38,607 nt of DNA from Anaerolineales bacterium (GTDB taxonomy: Bacteria; Chloroflexota; Anaerolineae; Anaerolineales; E44-bin32), in contig JAHFAU010000002.1 of assembly GCA_023250385.1 (NCBI GenBank), positions 1 through 38,607 on the forward strand, read 5' to 3'. The notes under the pieces are model-generated. The model worked only from the letters and a program-made list of their open reading frames with translations. It ran no database searches and was not told where the DNA came from. Made by a program: the position numbers and the translations under genes. Positions 4,284 to 38,607 of this stretch are shown here, piece after piece (the stretch's first letter is position 1; the number at the start of each line of letters is the position of its first letter).

Positions 4284-4338
4284 GATCGACTTGATCGGTG
4301 GAGCGCTTACGCTCCTCGCACGCGGCGCAGACGGCCCC

Positions 4339-5364
4339 TCAAAATTCGACAATCACCCGGGTCCCGGGATTCGGCCATTGGACCGTGAGGTCGCCCGGCC
4401 GATAGGCCACAATCGGATCGGTCCAACGGAACAGCCACTTGGCGTCCTCCGGTCTCAGATTGATGCAGCCGCGGGATCGAGGAGCCCCGAAGTCTCCGTG
4501 CCAGTAGGTGGAGTGCAGGGCCGCGCCGCTGCCGTGAAAGAGCACCGTCCAGCCGACCCCGGGGAGGTCGTAGCCGCTGACTGCGTCGCCACCCGACATG
4601 TGTCGGGAGACCATCTTGCGCCAGGTCCACATCTGACCGATTGGGGTATTCGAGGTGAACTGGCCATTTTCGGGATAGAAGGAAAATCCAGATGAGATCC
4701 GGGCGAAATAGACTTCCACGCCGGACTCGAAGGCCGAGAGTTCCTGGCGAGTAATGTTTACGACCACCTGCTTGTCCTCGGCGTCGGGAGAGAGCGGAGC
4801 GATCTCCTCGGCCGCGATCGGCCGGAAAGCCTCTCCCGGGGCGTGGAGGACGACCCCGTTCTCATCGTGCACTCGATACCAGACCGCACCATCCGAACCT
4901 GTGACCCGCGCATCGACATTCAGGACCATGTCAAAGTACAGCCGATAACGCAGAGCCGAACTCGGGTCGGGCTGGCGCCGGCCATCTACAAAAGGCACGG
5001 TCACTTCGGTCCACAGGCCCTCGCCCGGCACCTGAGGCAGGATGGGATTGAGTTGATTCCGAACCCGCTGGGCATAGGAGGACCACAGATACCCCTCCGG
5101 CGTCTCGTACCAGACGTGGTTGTGCGGAAAGACCCCGCGCCCAATGATTTCCCGTTGGACCGCCATGACCTCGTCGAATACTTTCGATCCGACGATTGGG
5201 CTTTCGGGCCGGGGGCGGGAGTGAAGCGACGCCATTGGTTCGGTGATGCGAGCCAGCTCGGCCGCGTCAGAAAGGGGGATCAGCCGAGGTCGGTCGGCTA
5301 GGGCGAGGCCGGACAGAGAAATTCCGGCGAGCCGGATGAACTCTCTTCTGGAAATCTGGCTCAT
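4339..5364 (-). CDS. L,D-transpeptidase (YkuD domain) with twin-arginine signal peptide
   Basis: The N-terminus MSQISRREFIRLAGISLSGLALA is a Tat motif. The C-terminal YkuD catalytic region reads LFHGSGAALHSTYWHGDFGAPRSRGCINLRPEDAKWLFRW, matching the H-G...S/R-x-G-C-[IV]-[RN] signature. Confidence 0.8.
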   Translation of the reverse strand: MSQISRREFIRLAGISLSGLALADRPRLIPLSDAAELARITEPMASLHSRPRPESPIVGSKVFDEVMAVQREIIGRGVFPHNHVWYETPEGYLWSSYAQRVRNQLNPILPQVPGEGLWTEVTVPFVDGRRQPDPSSALRYRLYFDMVLNVDARVTGSDGAVWYRVHDENGVVLHAPGEAFRPIAAEEIAPLSPDAEDKQVVVNITRQELSAFESGVEVYFARISSGFSFYPENGQFTSNTPIGQMWTWRKMVSRHMSGGDAVSGYDLPGVGWTVLFHGSGAALHSTYWHGDFGAPRSRGCINLRPEDAKWLFRWTDPIVAYRPGDLTVQWPNPGTRVIVEF

Positions 5365-26008: not shown

Positions 26009-26992
26009 CTAGCCGGCGCTTATCCAGGCGCTCGCCCGCTCAAGCTGCGTGACCTCCTCCGGCTCCAATCGAACCTCGAGCGCCGCCAGATTATCTTCCA
26101 GCTGCTCTAGCGAGCGGGGGCCGATGATGGGGCTGGTGATGCCCGGCCGCTGCATCAGCCACGCAAGCGCCAGTTGGGAGGTCGAAGCGGCGTGTATACG
26201 AGTCAAGCCCTCCAGGCTGGCCAGCACGTCCCAGGGTCGTCGCTCGCGGGCGTATTGCTCGAGACGTGGGCTTCCCGCCAGGCGGCCGTCGGCCGGCGCC
26301 GGCTCGCCTTTCCGATACTTGCCGGTGAGAAAGCCGCGGGCAAGTGGGCTATAGGGAATTACCCCCAGGCCATAGGTCTGGCAAACCTGCTCGAGCTCCT
26401 GTTCGAATGGCTGACGGGCCAACAAGCTGTACTCGGGCTGCAAGCACACATAGCTCTCCAGCCCCAGCCGGTCGGAGCTCCAGAGCGCCTGCATGAGGCG
26501 CCACGCCGGATAGTTCGAACAACCAAGGTAGCGGACCACTCCCTGATGGACAAGATCATCGAGTGCCCGCAGGGTCTCATCAATCGGTGTATCGGGATCC
26601 ACCGAGTGGGTTTGGTACAGATCGATGTAGTCGGTCCCGAGGCGGCGCAATGAGTTCTTAACCGCCTCCATGATGTGCAGCCGTGAGAGTCCTTGCTCGT
26701 TCGGCCCCTCCCCCATCTGACCTCGAACCTTAGTTGCCAGCACGACCTGGTCCCGGGGTACGACTTTCATGCCCAGCCACTTGCCGATGATGCCCTCCGC
26801 GACCCCGCCGGGATTGCCGGCGGCCCAGCGGGAATAGACATCGGCGGTGTCGATGAAGTTGATTCCGCGCTCGGCCGCTCGAGTGAGGACCTTGAGCGAG
26901 ACCTGCTCATCGGCCGTCCAGCCGAACTGCATGGCGCCAAGGCAGAGCGGGGTGACTTTGAGCCCAGTCTTTCCTAGATTGCGGAATTCCAT
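26009..26992 (-). CDS. Aldo/keto reductase
   Basis: MEFRNLGKTGLKVTPLCLGAMQFG...INFIDTADVYS...ATKV...YIDLYQTHSVD...LGCSNY...IPYSPLARGFLTGKY... is a canonical AKR pattern. I placed the start at ATG 26992. Confidence 0.9.
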   Translation of the reverse strand: MEFRNLGKTGLKVTPLCLGAMQFGWTADEQVSLKVLTRAAERGINFIDTADVYSRWAAGNPGGVAEGIIGKWLGMKVVPRDQVVLATKVRGQMGEGPNEQGLSRLHIMEAVKNSLRRLGTDYIDLYQTHSVDPDTPIDETLRALDDLVHQGVVRYLGCSNYPAWRLMQALWSSDRLGLESYVCLQPEYSLLARQPFEQELEQVCQTYGLGVIPYSPLARGFLTGKYRKGEPAPADGRLAGSPRLEQYARERRPWDVLASLEGLTRIHAASTSQLALAWLMQRPGITSPIIGPRSLEQLEDNLAALEVRLEPEEVTQLERASAWISAG

Positions 26993-28568
26993 GGGTTGCC
27001 TCCGAATTGCATTCGCCACTGCCGGCCTTCGAGTTCAATCACTGCTGCTAGCTCTGGCTGCGCTGATAGTCACCTTCCTGCTGCGAGCCGCTATTTCAAC
27101 CGGATATCTAGCCTACCACGCGTGGGCCCGGGCCCAGCCACTCCGTGGTCCGGCTCAAACTCTGCAACTGCCTGCATCGCTTGGCTCCTTTGCGCTGCCC
27201 CACCTGGTCGATCCATTCGGAGTGTTGGCAGCCGGATTGTATGTCGAGGCCGGCCCGCCGGCCTTCTTATTCCTGGGGGCCGGGCTGCTGATAGTCGCGG
27301 TGCTCGCCCGCCAGCTGACTTGGGCGGCCGAACCCAACCGACAACAAGCCAGGGCCTACGGCCAGCTCGAGCAACTGAGCCGCGCGATTCTTAACACCCC
27401 GCCCGGGCCTGATCGAATCCCGCTCCTGCTCGAAGCACATCTGGCTGGGATGTTTCCGTCCGGGCCCTTAGCAGTTTGGCGCTTTCCAGATCAATTCTTC
27501 TACAAGCAGCCGGACAACTGGAACCCCGGCCTCGAGCCGATCTGGACCTGGCTGTGCAGTGAATTCGAGGGACGCGAAATCCTTCCGGGCGAACCCCTGC
27601 CGTGGAATGGCGCTCGCGATCACCATAGACCGATCCTTGTCGCACCTATCTGCGGCCCGAATGACACCCAGCCAATCGGAGGGATCTATCTAAAGCTCCG
27701 AGCCGATCAGCCATGGGACCGGGCCTCGGTCCGTAACCTGGTAGAGCCGGCAGAGGCTCTCGCCTCTTTGATCGCCTCTGCGCTGGATCAGGCTGCAGCC
27801 TACGACAACCGACTGGAGTTCGAGCGCGTGTCGCATGAACTGCGACTGGCAGGTGAGATCCAGTCCGGTTTGATCCCCTTTGACATCCCCCGCATCCCGG
27901 GTTGGCAGCTGGCCGTAACACTGAATCCGGCGGGGGAAACCTCCGGAGACTTCTTCGATATCATCCCACTGCCGGAAGGCAGGATTGGGTTGGTCATCGC
28001 GGATGTCGTCGACAAGGGCATTGGAGCCGCGCTCTATATGATCCTCAGCCGGACCTTGCTGCGGACCTATGCGGTCGAGGCGGATTCCGACCCCGCGCTG
28101 GTCTTCTTCGCCACCAATGCCAGAATGATTGCGGATACTACATCCAATCTCTTTGTCACCGCATTCTATGGAGTGCTGGATCCGGCAACCGGGAAACTGT
28201 CCTACAGCAATGCCGGGCATAATCCGCCCTATGTCCTCCGGTCCAGTGAGAAGATCATCATTCAGGAGCTCATTCGAACGGGTCTTCCGATCGGTGTCCA
28301 GGCGGGGGCCAGCTGGTCGAAGGCTTCGGTCCAAATCGAACCCGGAGATCGGTTAATCCTGTATACGGACGGAGTCCCAGACGCCCGAAACCCAAGCGGC
28401 CAAGGCTTGTCCATCCAACCGATCTTGGAGGTCGCAAAACAAAACCTCGGCCTCACGGCCGAGGACCTTCAATCCAAGTTGTTGGGGGAGATCTCTGCCT
28501 TCGTAGCCGGTGCGGCTCAGACCGATGATATCACTCTGATGGTGCTGGCGCGCGACCTTCCCGGTTAG
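26991..28568 (+). CDS. Membrane-associated PP2C-type phosphatase (SpoIIE/RsbU family) with N-terminal TM region and GAF-like sensor
   Basis: GETSGDFFDIIPLPEGRIGLVIADVVDKGIGAALYM...FVTAFYGVLD...YSNAGHNPPY...LILYTDGVPDA...QTDDITLMVLA are SpoIIE-domain motifs. The start is uncertain: ATG 26991 overlaps the divergent AKR start by 2 nt, and a downstream non-ATG start is possible. Confidence 0.8.
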   Translation: MGCLRIAFATAGLRVQSLLLALAALIVTFLLRAAISTGYLAYHAWARAQPLRGPAQTLQLPASLGSFALPHLVDPFGVLAAGLYVEAGPPAFLFLGAGLLIVAVLARQLTWAAEPNRQQARAYGQLEQLSRAILNTPPGPDRIPLLLEAHLAGMFPSGPLAVWRFPDQFFYKQPDNWNPGLEPIWTWLCSEFEGREILPGEPLPWNGARDHHRPILVAPICGPNDTQPIGGIYLKLRADQPWDRASVRNLVEPAEALASLIASALDQAAAYDNRLEFERVSHELRLAGEIQSGLIPFDIPRIPGWQLAVTLNPAGETSGDFFDIIPLPEGRIGLVIADVVDKGIGAALYMILSRTLLRTYAVEADSDPALVFFATNARMIADTTSNLFVTAFYGVLDPATGKLSYSNAGHNPPYVLRSSEKIIIQELIRTGLPIGVQAGASWSKASVQIEPGDRLILYTDGVPDARNPSGQGLSIQPILEVAKQNLGLTAEDLQSKLLGEISAFVAGAAQTDDITLMVLARDLPG

Positions 28569-28972
28569 CGGCTCTTGCGCATCGTCAGCCGATTGCCGTT
28601 GCCGGGGATCGGCTCAAACTGGACCTCGTCCATTGATCCGCGGATCAGCCGCAGCCCCGCCCCCCGCGGGTTCAATTCCTCCAGAGGGACCTCGAAATCA
28701 GCTTCCGGCACGCTGGAGGGATCGAACGGCCGGCTCCAATCGAGCAGGACAACTGTCACTCCGCCATCATCCGCTTCGATCGAGCATTCGATCTGTCCAT
28801 CGCCTTCCCCGCCGTAACCGTGCTCGATGATGTTGGTGCAAGCTTCATTGGTGGCCAATTCCACTGCGTACGCCGCAGAGTCGTCCAACCCCGCCCGCTT
28901 TGCAGTGCTTGAGACGAACTCGCAGATTCGTCCCAGGTTCTCGTATCGAGCCTCGAACGTCGCCTTCGGCAT
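28565..28972 (-). CDS. Anti-sigma regulatory factor, Ser/Thr kinase (RsbW/SpoIIAB-like HATPase_c)
   Basis: LATNEACTNIIEHGYGG (N-box) and GAGLRLIRGSMDEV (G-box-like), in a 135-aa protein directly downstream of a STAS protein. Confidence 0.8.
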   Translation of the reverse strand: MPKATFEARYENLGRICEFVSSTAKRAGLDDSAAYAVELATNEACTNIIEHGYGGEGDGQIECSIEADDGGVTVVLLDWSRPFDPSSVPEADFEVPLEELNPRGAGLRLIRGSMDEVQFEPIPGNGNRLTMRKSR

Positions 28973-28991
28973 GACGCGTCAGCACTCAATT

Positions 28992-29324
28992 TCAGAAACC
29001 AGCTACCGCAGTGTCGACCCCGTCAAAGATCTTCATGAAATGCATCAATCCGGCTAGATCGAGGGTCTTCTTTATGTTGTCGCTCGGGTTTGCGAGCACC
29101 AGGTCCCCCTTGCTGCGGCGGCGAGCTCGCTTTTGGGTTTCCAGTAAGACCCACACCCCGCTACTGGATAAGAACTCGACCTCGCTCATGTCGAAGACCA
29201 GTTTATTGCGCCCGTCATTCAGCAAGACGTCAAAGGCGTCTTTCAGCTCGGGCGACGAGTGGCTGTCGATCCGCCCGGCAGCCTTCACCACGTCCACCTT
29301 CTCCATCCGGATTGTCTCAACCAT
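28992..29324 (-). CDS. STAS-domain anti-sigma-factor antagonist (RsbV/SpoIIAA-like)
   Basis: KLVFDMSEVEFLSSSGVWVLLETQKRARRRSKGDLVLANPSDNIKKTLDLAGLMHFMKIFD shows the STAS pattern with the phosphorylatable Ser in D-x-S-x-V-x-F-x-(S/D)-S-x-G. ATG 29324 is preceded by GGGAGGAG. Confidence 0.8.
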   Translation of the reverse strand: MVETIRMEKVDVVKAAGRIDSHSSPELKDAFDVLLNDGRNKLVFDMSEVEFLSSSGVWVLLETQKRARRRSKGDLVLANPSDNIKKTLDLAGLMHFMKIFDGVDTAVAGF

Positions 29325-29365
29325 CGCTCCTCCCAAGTTCCCTGGATCGGCCGAAGTTTATCATG

Positions 29366-30268
29366 TCACCCAATGAGCAGCGCGTCGACCGCCAACGCCA
29401 GAAAGATTCCTCCAAGATACAGGCTCGAGTAGCGATACATCCTCCAGGCGAATCGATTACCGCCTCGCCGCTGCAAGATCAAGGCATGGCGGATCAATCC
29501 GAGCCCCAGCAATACCGCCGCCAGCAAGAAGAACCCACCGCCCAGCCCTACCAGCGGGAGCAGGATCGTTAGAGCAACCACCTGCAGACTGTAGAGCAGT
29601 ATCTGGCGCCGGGTCTCCACCTCCCCCGAGACGACCGGCAGCATAGGAATCCCGGCCCGGGCGTAATCTGACCGCTTAAGCAGCGCCAGGGCCCAGAAGT
29701 GGGGCGGGGTCCAGAAGAAGATCACCGCGAACAGAAAGAACGCCGGCAGGCTGAGGGAACCGGCGGCTGCTGCCCATCCGACCAACGGGGGAATCGCGCC
29801 CGCTCCTCCACCGACCACGATGTTCTGCGGGGTGCTCGGTTTGAGCAGGACGCTGTAGAGCAGGGCGTAATAGATGATCCCGGCCAGGGCGAGGATCGAG
29901 CTGAGCGGGTTCACGCCAATTGCCAGGACCGCCAGGCCGGCCACACACAGCGCCAGGCCGAAGAGCAGGCCCTGCATCGGCCTGAGCCGATGGTCAGCAA
30001 GGGCACGACCCATGGTGCGAACCATCCTGCGATCGATGCCCCGGTCGATGTACTGATTGAGAGCCCCCGCCCCTCCGGCGGTGAGCCCGCCTCCGAGCAG
30101 GGTCAATGCCACCGTTGGCAGCGGGGGAATTCCACCAATTGCGACCACCATCCCGCAAAAGGTCGTCAACAGCAGCAACGCGACGATCGCCGGCTTCGTG
30201 AGCGAGAGGTAGTCTACCAATCGGATGAACGCGCGGGAGGCTTGCGACTGCGTCAGACCGCTGGTCAT
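29366..30268 (-). CDS. ctaB: Protoheme IX farnesyltransferase (heme O synthase)
   Basis: UbiA-family motifs NQYIDRGIDRRM and LYSVLLKPSTPQNIVVGGGAGAIPPLVGW, plus FFWTPPHFWALAL. The ATG overlaps the subunit I stop (ATGA). Confidence 0.9.
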   Translation of the reverse strand: MTSGLTQSQASRAFIRLVDYLSLTKPAIVALLLLTTFCGMVVAIGGIPPLPTVALTLLGGGLTAGGAGALNQYIDRGIDRRMVRTMGRALADHRLRPMQGLLFGLALCVAGLAVLAIGVNPLSSILALAGIIYYALLYSVLLKPSTPQNIVVGGGAGAIPPLVGWAAAAGSLSLPAFFLFAVIFFWTPPHFWALALLKRSDYARAGIPMLPVVSGEVETRRQILLYSLQVVALTILLPLVGLGGGFFLLAAVLLGLGLIRHALILQRRGGNRFAWRMYRYSSLYLGGIFLALAVDALLIG

Positions 30269-31725
30269 GGGATTGACTCGGGCAGGATCCCTTGGGTTGC
30301 CCGGCCGGTCCGCCAGGCGAAAAACATGTTGTAAAGAAACAACAAGGATGCGCCGGCCAATATCAGCGCCCCTCCGCTGGAAGCCAGCTGGAACAGATTG
30401 ACTTCAGGGCCGAATTCAAAGACCCGGCGTGGGATGCCCTGCAGCCCGATTAGGAGCATCGGCAGGAAGGCCAAGTGCGCACCTCCGGCGTGGGCGAGGA
30501 AATGGAGCTTCCCGAGGTTTTCATCGTAGTCTTTGCCGGTGAAGCTCGGAAAGACGTAATAGATACCGGCAAACAACCCCGACATCACCCCGCCGAAGAG
30601 GGCGAGATGCGAATGGCCCGAGACAAAGTAGCTGCCGTGCAATTGAAGGTTGGCGGGAACCGAGGCAAGTACCAGTCCACTGAGGCCGGCCAGCAAGAGC
30701 ATCGAAATGAATCCGAGTGAGAAAAGCATCGGCGTGCTGAACCGGACCTGGCTAAGCCAGAGGGTGGTCAACCAAGCCAGGCCGATGAAAGCCAGCGGGA
30801 CGGCGACCGCCATTGAAGTCAGCATGAACGAGACCCGGACGGTCGGGATCAATCCGCTGGCGAACATATGTTGACCCCAGGAGACCAGGCCCAATCCGCC
30901 AACTGCCAGCATGGCAAGGCTGACCGAGCGCCTGGCCACAAGTGGCCGGCCGGTGTTGGCCTGAATGATCTCGGACACCGTCCCGATCGCCGGCAAGAGC
31001 ATGACGGTCATTGCTGGATGCGCGAAGAACCAGAAAGCGTTCTGCCACAGGGTCAGCCCAAGCGAGCTGGCGAGAAAACTTGGCCCGCCGACCAGCCGGT
31101 CCACCAGCAGCGCGCTCAGAGCCGCCAGCAAGACCGGGACCGAGATCAGCGCCAGCGCCGAGCTAATCAGGCTGGCAATCGCGAATTGTGAGAGGCCGGG
31201 TGAAGCGGTCCGCTGTGCCTGAAGAATGGTCGCCAGAAATGAGGTCGCATTACAGCCGAGGGAGAGAACGAGCACGATCAGGCCGGCAACCCACACGGTC
31301 TGGCCTGCGCCACCCGCCTGGGCGGAGAGCGGGACAGAAGCAGTCCAGCCGGAGGAGGCTCCGCCGAGGAAGAAACTGGCCAGCATGAGCAGTCCGCCGG
31401 GCGGCAGCAGCCAGAAACCCAACCCGCTCACCCGGGGCAATGCGCTCCGGGTCACACCGAGCACCCGCCCCAACAGCGCATGGGTGAGGCCGGCAACTGC
31501 GGGCATCAGCCAGAGGAAGATCATGATTGAGCCGTGGTTGGTGAAGGCCCGGGAATAAGCCTCCGCGCCCAGCAGCTCCACTCCAGGCAGACTGGCCTCG
31601 GCCGTCATCCCGAGCGCCAGAGCGCCGCCGAGCAGGAAGAAGACGAAGCTGGTGACCAGGAACTGCACAGCCAGCACCGCCGGATCCGTAGACGGACGAA
31701 GATAGCTGCGGCCGGATCCGCTCAT
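30265..31725 (-). CDS. Heme-copper oxidase superfamily subunit I homologue with non-canonical active site
   Basis: Roughly 12-TM protein. Matches to canonical landmarks:
- FTNHGSIMIFLWLMP: helix II His.
- WQNAFWFFAHPAMTVMLLP versus canonical WFFGHPEVY.
- VSWGQHMFASG versus WAHHMF.
- VSGHSHLALFGG versus HFH.
- GIPRR versus GMPRR.
I placed the start at ATG 31725, 2 nt after the subunit II stop. Confidence 0.8.
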   Translation of the reverse strand: MSGSGRSYLRPSTDPAVLAVQFLVTSFVFFLLGGALALGMTAEASLPGVELLGAEAYSRAFTNHGSIMIFLWLMPAVAGLTHALLGRVLGVTRSALPRVSGLGFWLLPPGGLLMLASFFLGGASSGWTASVPLSAQAGGAGQTVWVAGLIVLVLSLGCNATSFLATILQAQRTASPGLSQFAIASLISSALALISVPVLLAALSALLVDRLVGGPSFLASSLGLTLWQNAFWFFAHPAMTVMLLPAIGTVSEIIQANTGRPLVARRSVSLAMLAVGGLGLVSWGQHMFASGLIPTVRVSFMLTSMAVAVPLAFIGLAWLTTLWLSQVRFSTPMLFSLGFISMLLLAGLSGLVLASVPANLQLHGSYFVSGHSHLALFGGVMSGLFAGIYYVFPSFTGKDYDENLGKLHFLAHAGGAHLAFLPMLLIGLQGIPRRVFEFGPEVNLFQLASSGGALILAGASLLFLYNMFFAWRTGRATQGILPESIP

Positions 31726-31727
31726 GA

Positions 31728-32426
31728 TCACTCTCCGCCCCCAGATTGCAACCACTGCTCGAAACTGGCCGGGTCCTCAACCTGCACCGTTGCGATCATT
31801 CCGGTGTGACCCGGGCCGCAAAACTCGGCGCAGACGGCCTCGTACTCCCCGGTCCGCAGTTGAGTCAACGCTAGGGAAGTCACCCGATCCGGCAGGGCGT
31901 CTACCTTACCTCCGAAGGCCGGAACCCAGAAGGAGTGGATCACATCTTTGGATCTGAACTCTAGCACGACCGCACGTCCCGCCGGCAGATGCAGTTCGTT
32001 GGCGATAACGCCGCTCTCCGGGTAGCGGAACTCCCACTGATACTGGCTGGCCGTGATTTCGACCTGCAGCGGATCGGGCCCGGACGCTTCCATCAGCAGC
32101 AGGACTCGGATCGAGTACACGCTGAGCGCAAGCACAATGGCGGCCGGTACCGCGAGCCACAACAATTCCAGGGACGAGTTCGAATTCCCAATGGCCACCG
32201 GGGACTGGAAAAGCCGTCCGCGTATTGCCGCAAAAACGAGCAACCCCTCCACTCCCAGAAACACTGCAGTTGCAAGCCCGAAGAAGACTCGGAGCAGCTG
32301 GTCGACCAGAACAGCGCGATCGCTGGCAGCTTGTGGCAAGGGGCGCACGAAGCTGGCAACCGCCACGCCGACTCCGATCAGGAGCAGGACCAGAATCGTT
32401 ACGGCAAGGATGTTTCGTTCACGCAT
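31728..32426 (-). CDS. coxB: Cytochrome oxidase subunit II with intact CuA site
   Basis: Two N-terminal TM helices, then a cupredoxin domain with DVIHSFWVPAFGGKVDALP and CAEFCGPGHTGM (H...C-x-E-x-C-x3-H-x2-M CuA ligands). Confidence 0.9.
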   Translation of the reverse strand: MRERNILAVTILVLLLIGVGVAVASFVRPLPQAASDRAVLVDQLLRVFFGLATAVFLGVEGLLVFAAIRGRLFQSPVAIGNSNSSLELLWLAVPAAIVLALSVYSIRVLLLMEASGPDPLQVEITASQYQWEFRYPESGVIANELHLPAGRAVVLEFRSKDVIHSFWVPAFGGKVDALPDRVTSLALTQLRTGEYEAVCAEFCGPGHTGMIATVQVEDPASFEQWLQSGGGE

Positions 32427-32457: not shown

Positions 32458-32552
32458 TCGGTGTTGGCAGCGGCCTGGGTTGGCGTAGACTGATTCCTTG
32501 CGCTCTCGGACCGACCGGCTTAGACTCGTGCTGCATCCGGAGGAAAATGCAT

Positions 32553-32957
32553 ATGACTACCCGTCACCAGATTTACGTCGTAGCAATTCTCGTGCTCGCG
32601 AGTGGACTTGCGGCCTGTGGCGGCCCGAAGACCGCGGAGCTGGCGATGTCCATGTCGGAGTTTTCTTTCTCACCCGCCAGCGCCACTGTGCCGGCAGGGG
32701 CCGAAGTCACCCTCACCGTGACCAACAGCGGCACGATCGAACACAACTGGGTGCTGCTGGATGCCGGTTACCAAGCCTCGGCCCCATTCGACGCAACTGA
32801 CCAGGCGTATGTTGTTACCGAGACCAAGGTTCCGGCAGGCGAAGTCCAGACCTTCACCTTCACCGCGCCATCGAAGGCAGGGTCATACCAAATCGTCTGC
32901 AGCGTCCCTGGCCACTTGGAGGCCGGCATGAAGGCCACCCTGACCGTTGGCGGCTAA
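32553..32957 (+). CDS. Type-1 (blue) copper cupredoxin lipoprotein
   Basis: The signal peptide carries the lipobox LAAC (MTTRHQIYVVAILVLASGLAACGG). The T1Cu ligands are H in GTIEHNW and C-x4-H-x4-M in IVCSVPGHLEAGM. GGAGGA lies 8 nt before ATG 32553; an alternative ATG is at 32547. The gene is divergent from coxII. The upstream part of track ORF 31989..32957 is antisense shadow. Confidence 0.85.
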   Translation: MTTRHQIYVVAILVLASGLAACGGPKTAELAMSMSEFSFSPASATVPAGAEVTLTVTNSGTIEHNWVLLDAGYQASAPFDATDQAYVVTETKVPAGEVQTFTFTAPSKAGSYQIVCSVPGHLEAGMKATLTVGG

Positions 32958-33524
32958 AGCAGGCGAAGTGGCCCGATTGCCCTCTGCTCGCCACATCTGG
33001 CGCAGACCCTTGTACTTGCGGCGGAACTCGGCCGGGTCCTGCTGAATGGTCTCGGTGGAAAACTGAGGGAGCAACTCGGCCAGCAGGCGATCCAGCTCGC
33101 TGAACTGAATCCATCCCTGGCGTAGAAAAACTAACACGACCATGTAATCCGGCTCATCGCCCCTTGCGATGAGCCGGATCGCGGTACTGTACGGGTCGAA
33201 ATGATATAGCTTGAGCAGCGCTGGCGAACTGCGCCCCGCGATCTCCCAACCCTGAGCGCGTCGTTCGTGCCCCTCAGGGAGCGGGACAACTTCCGCGGGT
33301 GACTCACACAGGATGCGCAATTGGCGCTGAGCCGCCACATGCTCGATCGATTGTTGCAGCTCGGTGAGATCAGCGGCTTGCGCCATGTACACCAATTGAT
33401 CCGTCCATTCCCGCCAGCCCTCGACCACCAGTGAGCTCTCGCCGACCAGATAGAGCCGGGCCGGCGAGGTCAGCCGGTCGTCCAGGGCCGCCACAAATTC
33501 GTAGATCGCCGGTCTTGTGATCAC
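32883..33524 (-). CDS. Hypothetical protein (possibly a degenerate nucleotidyltransferase-fold / DUF6036-like protein)
   Basis: GTG 33524..33522 overlaps the stop of the upstream FGE-like gene (GTGA). LYLVGESSLVVEGWREWTDQLVY and AIRLIARGDEPDYMVVLVFL weakly resemble NTase-fold proteins. The last 75 nt overlap the convergent cupredoxin gene. Confidence 0.45.
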   Translation of the reverse strand: MITRPAIYEFVAALDDRLTSPARLYLVGESSLVVEGWREWTDQLVYMAQAADLTELQQSIEHVAAQRQLRILCESPAEVVPLPEGHERRAQGWEIAGRSSPALLKLYHFDPYSTAIRLIARGDEPDYMVVLVFLRQGWIQFSELDRLLAELLPQFSTETIQQDPAEFRRKYKGLRQMWRAEGNRATSPALAANGQGGLHAGLQVARDAADDLV

Positions 33525-34195
33525 TTTGGCCAGCCATCCCAGGCGCAGCGGAACCCGATCGCCGTGTTGCGAAACGCCGGCCCAAAATAGACCCGGGCCG
33601 CAGCCCGCGCATCCTTGAAGCCTTTGTAATCCCACGAGCCGCCCTTCAACACCCTCCAGTCCGCACCGAGTTCGTAGAGAGAGCTCGTCCACTCCCATAC
33701 ATTTCCGGCCATATCCATCACACCGTAAGGCGAGGCGCCTCCCGGGTGAGCGTCTACCGGCCGCGTGCCGGCGCTCTTCGATTCGCTGGAGTTGCAATTC
33801 TCTGGCACGAATTCATTTCCCCACGGATACAGCCAACCCTGCGAGCCTCGGGCTGACTTCTCCCATTCGGCCTCGCTGGGCAGCCGAGCGCCAGCCCAGT
33901 TCGTATAGGCCGCGGCATCTTCCCAGCTGACGTTGACTACCGGGTGCCTGGCGGCATCGAGCGGAAACTTGCCCCCAGGCCATTTGGGGGGCCGATGGCC
34001 GGTTGCCTCGACGAAACGTGCATATTCCACATTCGTAGTCGGAAATTTGGCAATCGAGAACTCATCCAGTTCGACGGCCTCCATGTCCTTCCCCATCAGG
34101 AATCCTCCGGCCGGGATCCGGATGATTTCCGCCGGGTCGTGAGCTCGAGGGTGGAGGGCTACTTGTACCGTCGCTTGGGCGTCTTTTCTTTCCAA
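33521..34195 (-). CDS. FGE/SUMF1-fold (formylglycine-generating-enzyme family) protein lacking the catalytic Cys pair
   Basis: Motifs: IPAGGFLMGKD, HPVVNVSWEDAAAYTNWAGARLPSEAEWEKSARG, YPWGNEF, SPYGVMDMAGNVWEWTSS, RVLKGGSW...NTAIGFRCA. There is no signal peptide. The start is uncertain; TTG 34195 overlaps the upstream gene by 37 nt. Confidence 0.8.
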   Translation of the reverse strand: MERKDAQATVQVALHPRAHDPAEIIRIPAGGFLMGKDMEAVELDEFSIAKFPTTNVEYARFVEATGHRPPKWPGGKFPLDAARHPVVNVSWEDAAAYTNWAGARLPSEAEWEKSARGSQGWLYPWGNEFVPENCNSSESKSAGTRPVDAHPGGASPYGVMDMAGNVWEWTSSLYELGADWRVLKGGSWDYKGFKDARAAARVYFGPAFRNTAIGFRCAWDGWPK

Positions 34196-34866
34196 TCGTA
34201 GACCCAGAAGGTATAGGAGTAGGGGAACATGGTTTGGACGACGTGAAACGGTTCGTATTCAAACAGGCGTCTCATCGCCCATGAAAAGCGGTAACGAGGA
34301 TGCTCGGGGGTGATGACTTCAACGACGCAGTTAACCTGAAAACTGACAAAGATCGGTGAATCCCCTGTCCACAGCACGGCGGCCATCGGGTTCCGGCTCA
34401 AGTTGCGGTAGGTGCTCCCCTCGAAGATCTCGAGCAGGCCGAGCCGCCTCCAGTCGATGTGTTCCGGGTGAGAGTAGAACGCACGCGCGGTCGCGATTCG
34501 CAGCCGCCGGGTGTCGTCCACCGCGTGCGGAGGGAGCTGCTCGATCTCGGCGACCGCACCCTCCACAAGCTTCAGGTAATGCTCGATGAATTCGTCTTTG
34601 GGGGTGAACCCCACCCCTTTGTTGGCCAGGTTAGGGAAGGCCGACTCGATGTCCCAGGTGCCGACGACCGGAAGATGACCGGCATTGAATGCAACGTATC
34701 GGTCGTGTTCGATCGCATCGTATACCCGCTCTTTGTAGTCGAGCTGCCAGCGGATAAAGCTTTCAGGAAGCTCTTTGACCTGATATTCCTGTACCTTCCC
34801 ATTAGTGCGGACTCGGGCTAGCCCATCGGAAACTACGACCTGGCCAATCAGATCAACCTCCGACAT
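34159..34866 (-). CDS. Hypothetical protein (C-terminal half possibly PNPOx-like split-barrel)
   Basis: ATG 34866 is preceded by a strong AAGGAG. The composition looks like real protein (rich in aromatic residues, E and K). NLSRNPMAAVLWTGDSPIFVSFQVNCVVEVITPEHPRYRF resembles split beta-barrel FMN/heme-binding proteins, but the assignment is weak. Confidence 0.55.
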   Translation of the reverse strand: MSEVDLIGQVVVSDGLARVRTNGKVQEYQVKELPESFIRWQLDYKERVYDAIEHDRYVAFNAGHLPVVGTWDIESAFPNLANKGVGFTPKDEFIEHYLKLVEGAVAEIEQLPPHAVDDTRRLRIATARAFYSHPEHIDWRRLGLLEIFEGSTYRNLSRNPMAAVLWTGDSPIFVSFQVNCVVEVITPEHPRYRFSWAMRRLFEYEPFHVVQTMFPYSYTFWVYDWKEKTPKRRYK

Positions 34867-34892
34867 CAGCGGTCTCCTTATAACGGCCCATC

Positions 34893-36152
34893 TCAGAGCA
34901 GCCGCTCCACCGCAGCCGGAACCGCCTGCGGGCTGCGGTCGGCAAGCTGGAACGCCGGGGGCCGCTCAAAACCGGCGAGGGCTCGCCGCATGATCTCTTC
35001 CGTTATCCAGCGGCTGGACTGACTTCGGGCATACGCCTCGACGCCTCGTTCAACCTTCTGGCGGATAAACGTAATCGGGATCCGCTCCAGCCGAGCGCGC
35101 GCCTCGCCACTCCAGAGGATCTCCTGGGCGGCGATTGCAGCCCCCGTCGGTTCATAGCTGCAGCCCGGGTCTTCTTCCAGGAAGTCGCCGAAGCGGGCAT
35201 AGGCTCGGCAGCGGCAGCCACCGCAGAGCTCCTTGTATTCGCAGCGGCCACAGCGGCCTTTCAGCTGGCCAGGATCGCGCAGCGCCAACAACTCAGGCGC
35301 GCTCTGCCAGATCTCAGAAAACGAACGTTCCCGGATATTCCCGACCGGCAGCGCCATGTAGGGGCAGGGTGTCACCTCCCCTTCCGGAGTGATCCGGCAA
35401 TACTCGGTCCCCGCCATGCAGCCGCCGCTCTCCATCCCGCCCAACCCGGCCTCGAAGGCAATCCGTTTGAAGTGCGGTGCGCACTTGGCCCGCACCAACA
35501 TCGGGCGGTAGCGCTCCTGGGACTCCGCCAAGAACGCCAGCATCTCTTCGGTTCGCGCTGCGGTGAGATCGTTCATTTGCTGACCGCGTCCGGTCTGCAC
35601 GAGAAAATATAGATTGAATGACCAGGCCCCGAGCTGGCGGGCAAACTCCAGCAGCCGGGGCACTTCAGAATAGTTGAGGTCCATGACGGTGCTTTGGACC
35701 AGTACTTCGAGGCCCTGAGCTCGGCAGACTTCGAGCGCCCGCACCGATTGCTCCCAGGAGTGGGGGCCGCCGCGGAAGCTGTTGTGGACGGCGGGATCGG
35801 TCGAGTCGATGCTGATCCCGACCCCCCGCACCCCACATTCGATCATCTTCGTGGCGACCAAGTCGTTCACCAACACGCCATTGGTGCCCATGACGACCCA
35901 GATCCCACGCCCGGAGGCGTAGCTGGCGATATCGTAAATGTCTTTGCGCAGCAGGGGTTCCCCGCCGGTCAGGATCAACATCTCCGTCCCCAAGCCAGCC
36001 ATCTCATCGATCAGTGCCAGGCATTCGGAGGTGCTTAATTCGTGCTCGGCCTTGACCCCGGCCTCCAGGTAACAATGGGGGCAGCGCAGGTTGCAGCGCT
36101 TGGTCAGGTTCCAAGAAACTAAGGAGGGCCGAAACTCGGTCTGGGTGCTCAT
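34893..36152 (-). CDS. Radical SAM/SPASM enzyme of the NirJ/AhbC/AhbD-like type, fused to a C-terminal PCP_red domain
   Basis: The rSAM cluster motif is CNLRCPHC (36072-36095). Also present: LTGGEPLL, the family-typical FNLYFLVQTGRG, and SPASM cysteines GGCMAGTEYCRITPEGEVTPCPYM...GRCGRCEYKELCGGCRCRAYA. The C-terminal extension ILWSGEARARLERIPITFIRQKVERGVEAYARSQSSRWITEEIM (34971-35120) matches the BchB/ChlB C-terminal domain. I placed the start at ATG 36152. Confidence 0.8.
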   Translation of the reverse strand: MSTQTEFRPSLVSWNLTKRCNLRCPHCYLEAGVKAEHELSTSECLALIDEMAGLGTEMLILTGGEPLLRKDIYDIASYASGRGIWVVMGTNGVLVNDLVATKMIECGVRGVGISIDSTDPAVHNSFRGGPHSWEQSVRALEVCRAQGLEVLVQSTVMDLNYSEVPRLLEFARQLGAWSFNLYFLVQTGRGQQMNDLTAARTEEMLAFLAESQERYRPMLVRAKCAPHFKRIAFEAGLGGMESGGCMAGTEYCRITPEGEVTPCPYMALPVGNIRERSFSEIWQSAPELLALRDPGQLKGRCGRCEYKELCGGCRCRAYARFGDFLEEDPGCSYEPTGAAIAAQEILWSGEARARLERIPITFIRQKVERGVEAYARSQSSRWITEEIMRRALAGFERPPAFQLADRSPQAVPAAVERLL

Positions 36153-36178
36153 GCCGCCCTTCGTTCCCGGCAGCGCGT

Positions 36179-36622
36179 TCACATCTCGGACATTCCGAGG
36201 GCGTCGCGGGCCTTGCTCATGACTGCGGGGCTGACCTCGGGGTAGCCGTTTCGCCTGGCCCAATCGGTGTACAGCCGGCGGACCATCCCCTGCACGAAGG
36301 CCGGAGCCGCGGCCAAGCGCTTTTCGGCCGCCTCGGTCCAGACCGGATCCGGTAGTCCGCGGTCGTCGATCCAGCCGGTTTCGCCCTCCAGCGAGCGCCG
36401 AATCTGATCCATCGGCCCTGCCTCCCCCTCGGAGAGCGTCTCATGCCCGATGGTCACTCCAAGGCTGGATACCAACTGGGTCTCGCCTGGGTTGGTGACC
36501 ATCGAGATTCGACGGCCACAATTGGGGCAGGAATACCGGATCGCCATGACACCACTGGCGCGGTCGGTGTCATTCGAGACGAACTCCATCGTTTCCTGAC
36601 ACTCTTCGCAGCGGAATTTCAC
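36179..36622 (-). CDS. Zinc-ribbon protein with C-terminal PCP_red domain
   Basis: The N-terminus has CEEC...CPNC (a 4-Cys ribbon). The C-terminus reads VWTEAAEKRLAAAPAFVQGMVRRLYTDWARRNGYPEVSPAVMSKA (36200-36340). The GTG start overlaps the stop of the upstream ATPase gene (GTGA). Confidence 0.7.
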   Translation of the reverse strand: MKFRCEECQETMEFVSNDTDRASGVMAIRYSCPNCGRRISMVTNPGETQLVSSLGVTIGHETLSEGEAGPMDQIRRSLEGETGWIDDRGLPDPVWTEAAEKRLAAAPAFVQGMVRRLYTDWARRNGYPEVSPAVMSKARDALGMSEM

Positions 36623-37455
36623 GCCAGCATTCCTCTGAGCCGATCCGCCAGTTCAAGGATCGCTCGGGCGGCCGGGGTCTCCGGATTGATCAGTACCCCG
36701 GGCCGCCCGTTCTCGGTGCTCTGGGCCAACTTCGGATCGAAAGGAACACTCGCCAGAATGGGGATCCCCACGGCATCCGCCAGCTCTCGGACCCGCCCCG
36801 ACTCGGCCGTCTCGGCCATGTTCTCCACCAAGCCGAGCAGCCGGGCTCCGGCCTGCTTAGCCCCGACAGATGCCCGCCGGACGACCAGCATGGAAGCTTC
36901 GCTGGGGGTTGTGATCATTACTGCGCCGCGGAGCTCCGGCAGCAGCCTCAGAAGCGTTTCGAAGCGGTCGGCGCCCGGAGGCATGTCAATCAAAAGATAG
37001 TCTAGCTCACCCCACTCGGTATCGGCCAGGAACTCGCGCAGAACGTTGGCTTCCAAAGTCCCGCGCCAGACAAACGAATCTTCGGCCAAGCCCCCATAGT
37101 GTCGCCAGCGGACGGCCGTACCATCGTCTTTCAGGAACAAATCCATCGACATCACTCGCACATCGCCGACTCCGATGGCCGGCCGCGCCCCTTCCGGGCC
37201 AAACTGCGGCCGCTGCCCGCGGGCACCCAGCATCAGCGCCGCGCTCGGCCCGTGGATATCGGCGTCCAAGACCCCCACCTTGGCCGCCTCGGTCCCCAGA
37301 GCGGCGGCCAGGTTGGCGGTCAGCAAACTCTTACCGACCCCACCTTTGCCACTGGCGATTGCAACCACATGGCGGACAGAGGCAAGCCGGCGGGCGACCG
37401 CCGCTCGCTGCGCAACAACCTGCCCCAGGACGTCCACGGGCGGAAGGCTTTCCAC
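36619..37455 (-). CDS. Mrp/NBP35/ParA-type P-loop ATPase lacking all cysteines
   Basis: Motifs: VVAIASGKGGVGKSLLTANLAAAL (deviant Walker A), VGVLDADIHGPS, WRGTL, LDYLLIDMPPG, GLVENM. The canonical C-x-x-C Fe-S ligands of Mrp/ApbC are absent, and the protein contains no Cys at all. The start codon is GTG. Confidence 0.8.
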   Translation of the reverse strand: MESLPPVDVLGQVVAQRAAVARRLASVRHVVAIASGKGGVGKSLLTANLAAALGTEAAKVGVLDADIHGPSAALMLGARGQRPQFGPEGARPAIGVGDVRVMSMDLFLKDDGTAVRWRHYGGLAEDSFVWRGTLEANVLREFLADTEWGELDYLLIDMPPGADRFETLLRLLPELRGAVMITTPSEASMLVVRRASVGAKQAGARLLGLVENMAETAESGRVRELADAVGIPILASVPFDPKLAQSTENGRPGVLINPETPAARAILELADRLRGMLA

Positions 37456-37466
37456 TGGTCAGCTCA

Positions 37467-37485
37467 GCCGCGCCCCAAGCGCGGC
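37467..37485 (-). other. Intercistronic GC hairpin between the Usp-PCP_red gene and the ATPase gene
   Basis: GCCGCGC-cccaa-GCGCGGC forms a perfect 7-bp stem with a 5-nt loop in the 45-nt gap. No U-tract follows on the coding strand, so it is not a classical terminator. Confidence 0.3.
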
Positions 37486-37500
37486 AGTCCTCTCACACTC

Positions 37501-38607
37501 TCAGCCACTCGGACCGGCGGCCCCGCCAGTGCCCTGGTCGCGCGCGGCGGATTCGGGGCCCGACATGCCCCTGAAATAACCAAAAGCTCCCTCGCTCTCG
37601 GCCTCCCAAAGCTCGCGCACCCTGCGCAGCATTTCGTCGGCGATCTCGAAATTGACCTCTTGATGTCCTGCTTCCCGCGCCAGACTGTCCACCATCTCTT
37701 TGACCATCTGGCGTTCAAACTTCGGAACTCGCGAAAGACGTTCCAGGGCGGAGTCATTCCAGATCAGCTCGGTCCCCGGCCCGTCGTCGCCCGCATAGCC
37801 CAGCCGGCGGGCCACCTGAATCGTCACTTCCAGCGTCACTTCGGGAAGCTGTTTCTCACGGGCATACCGTTCCATGGCCAGCATGGCCATCGGCTGAATG
37901 AACGGGGGTACCCGCGACTGCACCCGTGCGAGTGCCGCTTCGGTCCAGGGAAACGCCCGCTCGTGAGGTATGTATTCTTCAATCGGCGAGCGGGCCTTTT
38001 GCCGCGCTTCGGCGAGTTTCCGGTCTTCGGCCTCCAGCCCCATGAGATGCTTGGCAGAAGGCGGCAGTATCTCACTAAGCGCCCCGTACAGGAGATCGAG
38101 GGTCACCCGCCCATACCCCTCATGGCGGGCGTACTCCTCGACCGAAGCCTTAGCCATCGCCTGAGCGAAGGGCGGCGCCCGCAGCACAAGCTTGAGGGCG
38201 TCGTCGTCCCACTCCAGCGGCTCCTCCTCGTACTCCTCCAGCAACGGGATATCGAAAGGTCGGGCGTCGGCCGCCCCGACGATCAGCAGATTGTTGATGG
38301 CCAGCCGCAGCAGGTTATCGGTGTTGGACCCGAGGTCCGCGCCCTCCACATGGTGAGCTCCCCAACGCCCAATAACCACCAGGTCGTAGGCGTCCCGCTC
38401 ACACACGTCAATGATCTTTGCAAACGGCTTACCAACCAGCACCTCAGTGGTGATCTCCACCCCTTCCTCGGCCGCCACCTGCTCCGCCCGGAGCAGATTG
38501 GCTTCGCAGACCTTCTTCAGGCCGCGATCGATGATGTTGTTGTGCAGCTCTTCCTGCTCTTCGAACTTGAACACCTTGCCCGCCTGGTAGGAGAGCACGT
38601 AGCGAAT
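37501..38607 (-). CDS. Universal-stress-protein (Usp) domain protein followed by three tandem PCP_red domains (5' end outside window)
   Basis: The frame is open to the window edge. The C-terminal half of a Usp domain reads YDLVVIGRWGAHHVEGADLGSNTDNLLRLAINNLLIV. Three repeats follow:
- LEWDDDALKLVLRAPPFAQAMAKASVEEYARHEGYGRVTLDLL (38083-38211)
- FPWTEAALARVQSRVPPFIQPMAMLAMERYAREKQLPEVTLEVT (37813-37947)
- LIWNDSALERLSRVPKFERQMVKEMVDSLAREAGHQEVNFEIA (37621-37761). Confidence 0.75.
   Translation of the reverse strand: MRYVLSYQAGKVFKFEEQEELHNNIIDRGLKKVCEANLLRAEQVAAEEGVEITTEVLVGKPFAKIIDVCERDAYDLVVIGRWGAHHVEGADLGSNTDNLLRLAINNLLIVGAADARPFDIPLLEEYEEEPLEWDDDALKLVLRAPPFAQAMAKASVEEYARHEGYGRVTLDLLYGALSEILPPSAKHLMGLEAEDRKLAEARQKARSPIEEYIPHERAFPWTEAALARVQSRVPPFIQPMAMLAMERYAREKQLPEVTLEVTIQVARRLGYAGDDGPGTELIWNDSALERLSRVPKFERQMVKEMVDSLAREAGHQEVNFEIADEMLRRVRELWEAESEGAFGYFRGMSGPESAARDQGTGGAAGPSG

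Follow-up and report, generated by a model that had tools for sequence, protein, structure and literature searches.

The window analysed here, 38,607 nucleotides of an Anaerolineales contig, carries on its reverse strand a gene for subunit I of a remodelled heme-copper oxidase (HCO), here called Q-type, together with genes for subunit II and a heme O synthase (Table 1). Subunit II reads H...C-A-E-F-C-G-P-G-H-T-G-M; this motif and the CoxB score uphold the original prediction of a complete CuA site, and all eight Q-type loci keep the CuA ligands. The heme O synthase (CtaB) is 64–89% identical between Q-type loci and is translationally coupled to subunit I. A divergent cupredoxin with the ligand pattern H...C-x-x-P-G-H-x-x-x-M, also present in the related loci L006 and L007 (dN/dS 0.14–0.18), is the probable electron donor to CuA. 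In three other loci (L002, L003 and L009) a Cox11 gene with an intact CFCF motif adjoins the operon; a 173-aa ORF upstream of COX2 in L002 was discarded as a real gene, having no family match and a low-complexity translation. On the far side of the operon lies a partner-switching module, whose SpoIIE/PP2C gene probably starts downstream of 26847. Is this module a partner specific to the Q-type enzyme? This was considered and rejected: in L086 the canonical A2 operon is likewise followed by this module, so its linkage to the oxidase is ancestral. Among the genes upstream, the radical SAM/SPASM protein resembles NirJ2 or AhbD heme b synthase; a functional tie of these genes to the oxidase is unproven. 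No nir, nor or nos genes (nirK, nirS, nor-accessory genes or nosZ) were found in the 38.6-kb window or in the 10-kb flanks of eight related loci.

Table 1. Features of the Q-type locus and of its subunit I, in window coordinates.
Feature	Coordinates	Strand	Basis or remark
SpoIIE/PP2C phosphatase of the partner-switching module, convergent	26847..28568	+	Pfam SpoIIE E 4.7e-48
RsbW-like kinase	28565-28972	-	19 nt after preceding gene
STAS anti-sigma antagonist	28992-29336	-	29 nt after preceding gene
Heme O synthase (CtaB/CyoE)	29366..30268	-	NF003349 333 bits, above 246 cutoff; start overlaps subunit I stop by 4 nt (ATGA)
Subunit I, remodelled heme-copper oxidase (Q-type), 486 aa	30265..31725	-	Pfam COX1 E 6.5e-102
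GHSHLAL motif	30598-30618	-	Coordinate check
H371-S-H373: proximal high-spin heme ligand (H371) and second low-spin heme ligand (H373)	30607..30615	-	Alignment
VPLAFIG motif	30781-30801	-	Coordinate check
Ile314 replacing K-channel Lys362	30784..30786	-	Alignment; Ile in 40/41 clade members
Gln285 (CAA codon) at the position of CuB ligand His333	30871..30873	-	HMMER alignment, coordinate check
H-P-A-M-T: His236 (first CuB ligand) kept, Ala at Glu286 position, Thr240 at cross-linked Tyr position	31006..31020	-	Alignment
RSALPRVSG motif	31423-31449	-	Coordinate check
Arg93 replacing D-channel entrance Asp132	31447..31449	-	Alignment; clade R22, K16
FTNHG motif	31531-31545	-	Coordinate check
His64, low-spin heme ligand, invariant in clade	31534..31536	-	Alignment
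Subunit II, complete CuA site	31728..32426	-	NCBIfam CoxB 164 bits, above 147.7 cutoff; stop codon 2 nt before subunit I ATG
Blue-copper (type 1) cupredoxin, divergent, lipoprotein-like N-terminus (LASGLAAC)	32547..32957	+	Pfam Copper-bind E 1.2e-11
FGE-sulfatase-fold protein, 235-aa unknown, radical SAM/SPASM protein	33521..36263	-	Upstream genes common to L004, L006, L007

That the central ORF encodes an HCO subunit I, as originally predicted, is confirmed by the Pfam COX1 match and by a HMMER alignment to the actinobacterial CtaD (7rh6) that spans all motifs without a gap (E 2e-87). The AF2 model (pLDDT 83, pTM 0.87) has 12 transmembrane helices, and the best 50 Foldseek matches to it are all A-family, with TM scores of about 0.9. 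The protein nevertheless fails the equivalog test of NCBIfam TIGR02891 (CtaD_CoxA), with 389 bits under a cutoff of 670.75. An upstream GTG at 31755 would add 10 codons; homologues favour the ATG at 31725. Q-type genes are annotated as cytochrome c oxidase or ‘cbb3-type oxidase subunit I’.

What is left of the catalytic core? Ligand numbers such as His333, Glu286, Lys362 and Asp132 are those of R. sphaeroides, and Gln285, Thr240 and the like are those of the protein itself. In the alignment, WFFGHPEVY of 7rh6 corresponds to WFFAHPAMT, WAHHMY to WGQHMF, D-V-A-F-P-R-L-N to R-S-A-L-P-R-V-S, PTGIK to PLAFI (the Lys becoming Ile314) and AHFHY to GHSHL; the heme a His is kept. The residue calls and coordinates first proposed for the heme His, Q-H, HPAMT, RSALPRVSG and VPLAFIG all stood on re-checking. 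In place of the three-His CuB site of the A-family, Gln285 occupies the H333 position. In helix VI, where the A-family has its His-cross-linked Tyr at position +4 from the first CuB His, this protein has Thr240, and reading LGLVSWGQH directly reveals no Tyr at the C-family-type position in helix VII. Both proton channels have lost their hallmarks: D132 is R/K, N121 is H, N139 is G/S, Y-S is F-A, K362 is I and T359 is L. The original prediction also counted the change of the D-channel Glu to Ala as a loss. The Ala is there, but it is probably inherited, because the sister A2-type oxidases already have Y-S-H-P-A-V-Y; the new loss is Y-S to F-A.

From which oxidases does this protein come? A profile of the clade scored 157–403 bits on A-family PDB chains and 27–32 bits on B-family ba3, and found no match at E<=10 among cbb3, cNOR and qNOR chains. 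The best phmmer matches of subunit I in the PDB were likewise all A-family (E 2e-87), and similarity searches of this kind mark subunit I as A-family-derived. Its nearest relatives outside the clade are the A2 enzymes of Anaerolineales (44% identity, 437 bits), all others scoring 340 bits or less. Q-type loci run UvrB-PHP-PolX-DegV-[COX2-COX1Q-CtaB]-STAS-RsbW-SpoIIE-XerC-PNP-hyp-GNAT, and canonical A2 loci run UvrB-PHP-PolX-DegV-[COX2-COX1-COX3-COX4(-CtaB)]-STAS-RsbW-SpoIIE...XerC-PNP-hyp-GNAT. Since the two operons share a chromosomal slot and flanking genes, gene order identifies the Q-type operon as the positional orthologue, by vertical, in-place descent, of the aa3/caa3 operon (canonical, A2-type) that sister Anaerolineales carry. 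This descent from an ordinary oxidase, readable in the synteny, was a point the original prediction had missed. The A2 sister is 53–57% identical to A2 oxidases of other phyla and only 42–45% identical to the Q-type, and the stem branch of the Q-type clade appears accelerated. Neighbour joining on 61 sequences (BLOSUM62 distances, midpoint root) united the clade as one monophyletic group at the end of a very long stem; the tree gives no placement within the A-family, the clade being drawn toward the degenerate P0145, and the descent call is based on bit-score ranking and synteny instead.

Along this stem, the operon shed subunits III and IV. The D-channel went through Y33F, N121H, D132R/K, N139G/S and, just ahead of the first CuB His, the replacement of Y-S by F-A, and the K-channel went through T359L and K362I; the His-Tyr cofactor and the Mg-site Asp disappeared as well, and the middle CuB His became Gln. 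Side by side with the canonical Anaerolineales A2 enzymes (P0041–P0048; loci L086 and L089), the Q-type is alike in genomic slot, flanks, 12-helix fold (at 44% identity), CuA subunit II, low-spin heme ligands, H-P-A motif, Arg pair and heme O synthase. It differs in lacking subunits III and IV, D132, N121, N139, K362, T359, the cross-linked Tyr, the Mg-site Asp and some 50 C-terminal residues, in having F-A for Y-S and Gln for H333, and in falling below the NCBIfam CtaD cutoff. Degenerate A-family sequences also occur elsewhere, several of them with W-G-Q-H, and one of them at the least, P0244, branches off the canonical A2 oxidases as a singleton. Uniting the W-G-Q-H sequences outside Anaerolineales with the clade in one wider family was tried and rejected: they are 31–35% identical to the clade, below the canonical sister. 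Because of this low identity, and because P0244 has its closest kin among canonical A2 oxidases (117 of 120 among the matches listed), we treated them as independent events. Given such degenerates, Gln could be a tolerated decay route of the CuB site.

Within Anaerolineales, W-G-Q-H is carried by about 40 protein clusters (clustered at 90% identity), 49–100% identical and all from MAGs of this order, from many samples. Gln stands at the H333 position in 40 of 41 clade members, and its codon alternates between CAA and CAG among lineages. The original prediction had left it to the orthologues whether Q-H and the Ala/Thr substitutions are conserved. Q-H is kept, but Thr is found in three of 41 members: the cross-linked Tyr position is variable and mostly hydrophobic (M16 L11 S4 T3 I3 F3 Y1), with P0008 as the one member that has Tyr there, and like the Glu286 position it drifts freely across the clade. 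At the distal site, Gln285, His236, His286 and W232/W283 are 92–100% conserved. H373 is invariant and the proximal H371 is present in 36 of 41 members; all five without it have V368E, a Glu three residues before, which appears to compensate for the missing His. Small subclades have lost more, with H236N in P0029, P0033 and P0036, H286N in P0033 and H286Y in P0034, and the distal metal site is therefore dispensable in some members. Among cofactor residues, only the CuA and low-spin heme ligands never vary. Subunit I has a dN/dS of 0.12–0.14 at dS 0.3–0.8, inside the range of neighbouring genes, and the gene is maintained by purifying selection.

What might such an enzyme do? The account we place first, although we stop a little short of calling it probable, is that an A2 oxidase remodelled in place now works as a non-pumping reductase of small oxidants, with scavenging of NO to N2O as the likeliest chemistry. 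Its job is probably one other than the reduction of oxygen. The complex has two subunits, contains CuA and is supplied by the co-transcribed CtaB. Purifying selection has preserved the path of electron input, made up of the type 1 cupredoxin, CuA, the two low-spin heme His and Arg482, and of the catalytic pocket it has preserved the greater part (His236, Gln285, His286 and the proximal His371). Electrons would run from the cupredoxin to CuA, to the low-spin heme and on to heme O as the high-spin heme, opposite a His/Gln/His site. Copper probably still binds there, since an intact Cox11 stands beside the operon in some lineages. With the N-side proton pathway absent, protons would come from the outer (P) side, pumping would cease and the gain in membrane potential would be little or nil; disposal of small oxidants seems a more likely role than energy conservation. 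Across the superfamily, the Tyr cofactor counts as a requirement for O2 reduction, and NO reduction tolerates many active sites (PMC11214002), for which reason the conversion of NO to N2O would be the single likeliest chemistry. As a function NO reduction is unproven, and it is this ‘no Tyr’ rule that makes it most likely. Several observations run against an NO role. Denitrification genes are absent from the window and from the 10-kb flanks of the eight related loci; the helix VI site that is Glu in cNOR/qNOR, Asn in sNOR/bNOR and Gln in eNOR is unconserved and mostly hydrophobic here; and Cox11 hints at Cu, not at the FeB of characterised NORs. The further ligand losses in small subclades (H236N, H286N, H286Y) speak against the whole account, and so do the degenerate A-family sequences that arose elsewhere, several with W-G-Q-H.

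Could the enzyme still reduce O2? It might be a non-pumping scavenger, in which heme O and the His-Gln-His site slowly reduce O2 (or H2O2) with P-side protons and shield an anaerobic or microaerotolerant Anaerolineales cell without conserving energy; we consider this improbable, though far from negligible. It would fit the fact that the direct ancestor at this locus was an O2 reductase, the retention of Cox11 and CuA, which suggests a copper enzyme, the lack of nitrogen-oxide genes nearby and the Tyr at the cross-link position of P0008. However, bo3 and aa3 oxidases in which H333/H334 were replaced by site-directed mutagenesis in the 1990s reportedly lost both CuB and activity. These mutants are like the Q-type in that H333 is replaced in an A-family scaffold; they differ in that the Q-type change is ancient, comes with many co-adapted changes and is under selection. 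The cross-linked Tyr is moreover held necessary for O2 reduction (PMC11214002), and 40 of the 41 members are without it.

No better placed is a catalytically inert relic with a non-catalytic role, be it an electron sink or relay working through CuA and the low-spin heme alone, a heme O scaffold or a redox input to STAS/RsbW/SpoIIE. Strict invariance confined to CuA and low-spin heme residues, binuclear-centre ligands gone in several subclades, the free drift at the Tyr and Glu286 positions and the independent degeneration of other A-family subunits I would all suit a relic, and the partner-switching genes appear co-transcribed (gaps of 29 and 19 nt). The distal residues argue otherwise, as an inert protein would sit poorly with 92–100% conservation of Gln285, His236, His286 and W232/W283, with an apparent compensation of the proximal His loss by V368E, or with a retained heme O synthase and, in some lineages, Cox11; the STAS module, found after the canonical operon in L086 too, is not specific to the Q-type.

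Does the protein then belong to a known type of NOR? In gNOR, Asp takes the place of an active-site His, making it the first HCO with a replaced active-site His, and it is a proposed NO reducer (Murali et al. 2024, PMC11214002); the same paper bears out the statement in the original prediction that His-substituted HCOs without the Tyr had been proposed as NORs. A His-to-Glu substitution of a heme ligand has been reported for gNOR as well (preprint 10.1101/592808). Like the Q-type, gNOR (Sievert 2008, Murali 2024) lacks the Tyr and the canonical proton channels and has another residue in place of one active-site His, but it is B-family-related, is predicted to oxidise quinol, and combines its Asp with a cupredoxin-fold subunit II without CuA ligands; the Q-type has Gln and a complete CuA. 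The eNOR enzymes, with NO reductase activity shown for Rhodothermus marinus, share with it a CuA-type subunit II, the lack of Tyr, an active-site Gln and hosts in Anaerolineales. They are defined, however, by Gln at the cross-linked Tyr position with three His retained (PMC8756737 Table A4), are B-family-related, have a K-channel analogue and may be electrogenic; the Q-type has Thr at that position (Met or Leu in other members) and one His replaced. As for cNOR and qNOR, they too lack the Tyr and N-side proton channels, with protons presumably from the P side; they differ in being C-family-related, in an FeB held by three His and a Glu at H+4, and in a donor that is NorC cytochrome c or quinol and not CuA. 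The Q-type has no Glu at H+4, nor any cNOR, qNOR or cbb3 match at E<=10. Membership in gNOR, eNOR, sNOR, nNOR or bNOR (families set apart here by their descriptions and by ba3 scores as a B-family proxy), possibly through horizontal acquisition, is very unlikely. The absent Tyr and replaced His, as in gNOR, and the occurrence of eNOR with its diagnostic Gln in Anaerolineales (PMC8756737) would favour it, but the clade scores about 30 bits on ba3 against 157–403 on the A-family, and synteny speaks for vertical descent, not acquisition. The original prediction of an alternative NOR or a further variant holds for its second half; the NOR family is contradicted by A-family derivation, CuA and Gln, and NOR function is without direct support. 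Finally, a sequencing or assembly error or a strain-specific decaying pseudogene can be set aside almost entirely, as the original prediction had anticipated for a single sequencing error: His to Gln takes one third-position change (CAY to CAR), but the substitutions recur in many samples, across about 40 independent clusters at 90% identity, Gln occurs in 40 of 41 members and is written with either codon, CAA or CAG, the ORFs are intact and dN/dS is 0.12–0.14.

What would an A2 oxidase remodelled in place mean for the superfamily? Reviews hold the three active-site His to be conserved in all families but gNOR, and the newly proposed NORs are all B-family-derived. A Gln variant of the active-site His was not described in the literature searched; an earlier mention elsewhere is possible. 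If the present reading is true, the Q-type would be the second independent natural replacement of an active-site His, the first by Gln, and from the A-family. The stronger claim, that this is the first HCO family to arise from an A-family pump by in-place remodelling and now performs NO or other non-O2 chemistry at a heme/His-Gln-His site, is possible but rather doubtful. The unmodified ancestral operon at the same locus in sister genomes offers a natural before/after pair from which the transition would be reconstructable, and which could tell which changes turn a proton-pumping O2 reductase into something else. The Q-type also lends itself, as a scaffold provided by nature, to studying the binding and the function of a His2Gln distal site. 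For the biology of Anaerolineales the consequence is practical: current annotation would wrongly count Q-type genes as evidence of aerobic respiration in their MAGs.

What remains of the active site in this subunit I? When it is aligned by HMMER with A-family subunits of known structure, none of the diagnostic motifs is interrupted by a gap. Both histidines of the low-spin heme (H64, H373), the high-spin heme's proximal histidine (H371) and the first and third CuB histidines (H236, H286) are retained. The middle CuB histidine (H333 in R. sphaeroides numbering) is Gln285, Thr240 stands at the position of the cross-linked tyrosine, and Ile314, Arg93 and a serine occupy the positions of K362, D132 and N139. 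The original prediction had read each of these residues correctly, down to the CAA codon of the glutamine, together with the complete CuA site of subunit II. The alanine that it reported at the Glu286 position is there as well, but it was probably inherited from the A2 ancestor; the new loss in this motif of the remodelled (Q-type) subunit I is Y-S to F-A. A GTG ten codons upstream of the ATG is a possible start, but homologues lend it no support.

Coordinates of the features discussed
Feature	Locus and position	Strand	Remarks
Subunit I (heme-copper oxidase)	window 30265-31725	minus	486 aa; ATG at 31725, stop at 30265; Pfam COX1 E 6.5e-102
Gln285 codon	window 30871-30873	minus	CAA; middle CuB His position
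Subunit II	window 31728-32426	minus	all CuA ligands present
STAS/RsbW-like kinase/SpoIIE-phosphatase module	window 26847-29336; L086 12642-15509; L001 12466-13456		directly downstream of oxidase operon
Longest SpoIIE ORF	window 26847-28568	plus
Aldo/keto reductase	window 26009-27019	minus
FGE-sulfatase-fold protein (224 aa) and 235-aa protein	window 33521-34866	minus	ORFs overlap by 37 nt
Conserved upstream cluster	window 34893-38598; L004 1-4012; L007 2730-6800	minus (window)
Cox11/CtaG homologue	L002 3857-4729	minus	290 aa; CFCF intact; also in L003, L009
P1B-type copper ATPase	window 5423-7852	minus	two HMA domains
TlpA/ResA-like thioredoxin-fold protein	window 3681-4352	minus

Could the glutamine be an error? 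A search of 5.8 billion proteins returned about 40 clusters (49-100% identity) with the same substitutions, and every named one is an Anaerolineales or Anaerolineaceae MAG. Among 41 clade sequences, Gln285 and Ile314 are each present in 40, His286 in 39, His236 in 38 and His371 in 36; position 93 is Arg or Lys in 38 of the 40 aligned there, and the low-spin heme ligands and Arg482 are invariant. The glutamine codon is CAA or CAG depending on lineage, and one third-position change suffices for reversion to histidine. For pairs whose dS is not saturated (0.3-0.8), dN/dS of subunit I comes to 0.12-0.14, and the values for the flanking genes (0.01-0.21) span this. The clusters, both codons and the dN/dS exclude a sequencing error or pseudogene, bearing out the argument first made from the coordinated substitutions. 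The clade is narrow, with one representative at 50% clustering (790 bits; next match 447 bits) and the gene in at least 4 of 185,579 GTDB species representatives.

Descent from the A-family is clear. The clade profile scores 157-403 bits against A-family chains and 27-32 bits against Thermus ba3 (B-family), and gives no match to cbb3, cNOR or qNOR chains at E<=10. AlphaFold predicts twelve TM helices (pLDDT 83, pTM 0.87); the model fits onto A-family subunit I with a TM of ~0.9, and its best 50 structural matches are all A-family. The NCBIfam model CtaD_CoxA gives 389 bits, far under its cutoff of 670.75. Canonical A2-type (Y-S-H-P-A-V-Y) Anaerolineales oxidases come nearest to the clade, at 44% identity. 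Their gene order is UvrB-PHP-PolX-DegV-[COX2-COX1-COX3-COX4(-CtaB)]-STAS-RsbW-SpoIIE-...-XerC-PNP-hyp-GNAT; that of the Q-type is UvrB-PHP-PolX-DegV-[COX2-COX1Q-CtaB]-STAS-RsbW-SpoIIE-XerC-PNP-hyp-GNAT-.... The shared order decides the question: the Q-type gene sits where others have that of an ordinary aa3/caa3 oxidase, and is its positional orthologue. Flanking proteins share 49-67% identity between the window and canonical-type genomes, about the same as among Q-type lineages. The canonical Anaerolineales enzyme is 53-57% identical to A2 oxidases of other phyla versus 42-45% to its Q-type orthologue; the stem of the clade evolved at a strongly accelerated rate before constraint was renewed.

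Neither proton channel survives, and the residues that replace them are themselves conserved (Arg/Lys at the mouth of the D-channel, N121 to His, K362 to Ile). Subunits III and IV have dropped out of the operon, and the Tyr cofactor, the Mg-site Asp and the C-terminal tail are also missing. What is kept is the electron input: CuA is intact in 8/8 Q-type loci examined, the most divergent included, as is the low-spin heme site. Heme O synthase (64-89% identity across loci) is translationally coupled to subunit I by an ATGA overlap. The window shares with L006 and L007 a divergently transcribed type 1 cupredoxin whose N-terminus resembles that of a lipoprotein; it is the likely donor of electrons. 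A Cox11/CtaG homologue with the CFCF copper motif adjoins the operon in three related loci; neither the window nor the flanks of L001, L004 and L006-L008 contain one. The copper ATPase and the TlpA/ResA-like gene, about 22 kb from the window operon, may help to supply copper and mature CuA.

The partner-switching module looks co-transcribed with the oxidase (29-nt and 19-nt gaps) and accompanies canonical as well as Q-type loci, suggesting an ancestral regulatory tie to the terminal oxidase. The SpoIIE phosphatase probably starts downstream of 26847, since its longest ORF shares ~170 nt with the aldo/keto reductase gene, which is on the other strand. The FGE-sulfatase-fold and 235-aa genes lie directly upstream of the cupredoxin/COX2 genes; the 235-aa protein is well conserved (91% identity to L006 and L007, dN/dS ~0.05) and matched nothing in a family search. 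Alongside a P-loop ATPase of the Mrp/NUBPL type and a Usp protein that carries three PCP_red repeats, the upstream cluster encodes a radical SAM/SPASM protein that ends in a PCP_red domain and is similar to NirJ2 or the heme b synthase AhbD (340 and 313 bits, both under cutoff). The cluster may serve oxygen-independent heme or tetrapyrrole maturation.

What might such an enzyme do? Electrons would pass from cupredoxin through CuA and the low-spin heme to a high-spin heme that is probably heme O and faces a His/Gln/His site. With no N-side proton pathway, the chemistry would have to use P-side protons, as in cNOR, and pumping would be impossible. According to Murali et al. (PMC11214002), O2 reduction in the superfamily requires the Tyr cofactor and several active-site designs support NO reduction; by that criterion the likeliest activity is NO scavenging, and the nitric-oxide reductase first proposed stays plausible. 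The evidence is thin: neither the window nor the flanks of related loci contain nir, nor or nos genes, the Tyr position lacks the polar residue by which every known NOR is marked there, and Cox11 points to Cu where characterised NORs have Fe. Scavenging of O2 or peroxide is a live alternative, and so is a non-catalytic electron-transfer role. Drift at the Tyr (M/L/S/T/I/F) and Glu286 (L/A) positions and distal ligand losses (H236N in three members, H286N and H286Y in one each) count against a tightly constrained catalytic pocket. All five sequences whose proximal His is Thr or Asn carry V368E one turn earlier, which looks like a compensating ligand switch and recalls the His-to-Glu heme-ligand substitution reported for gNOR (preprint 10.1101/592808).

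Membership of a proposed NOR family, also raised at the outset, does not hold. The relatives with a substituted histidine that the original prediction mentioned correspond to gNOR, described as the first HCO with a replaced active-site histidine (PMC11214002), but gNOR has Asp for His and no CuA, whereas here Gln replaces His and CuA is complete. eNOR, which occurs in Anaerolineales, is also diagnosed by a Gln, but at the Tyr position with all three His kept (PMC8756737). gNOR, eNOR, sNOR and nNOR are all described as B-family relatives, and the Q-type fits none of their definitions.

Is the glutamine unique to this clade? About 15 other A-family-like sequences with degenerate centres, all missing K362, occur among the best 150 50%-cluster representatives. 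Degenerate or W-G-Q-H representatives outside the clade (31-35% identity to the window protein, below the canonical sister's) include P0182, P0220, P0243 and P0244, in which W-G-Q-H arose independently, P0258 (Glu at the H333 position), P0145 (Gln at the first CuB His and also at the heme a3 His), P0270, P0232, P0236 and P0095. P0244 is a singleton offshoot from canonical Myxococcota-type A2 oxidases, its nearest relatives among the matches listed being normal A2 oxidases of Myxococcota and Acidobacteriota. His333 to Gln thus recurs when A-type oxidases shed their pump, either as the best-tolerated substitution or as a convergent functional solution. Of the cases here, only the Anaerolineales clade has been shown to be both old and diversified and to evolve under purifying selection.

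Given the database names of P0003 and P0024, metabolic reconstructions of the MAGs that carry them would wrongly infer aerobic respiration from these proteins. The literature searched contained no account of a clade derived from the A-family in which Gln replaces His333. The clade breaks the 'three histidines' rule inside the A-family while the unmodified ancestor survives at the same locus in sister genomes, which makes it truly interesting for specialists in heme-copper oxidases.
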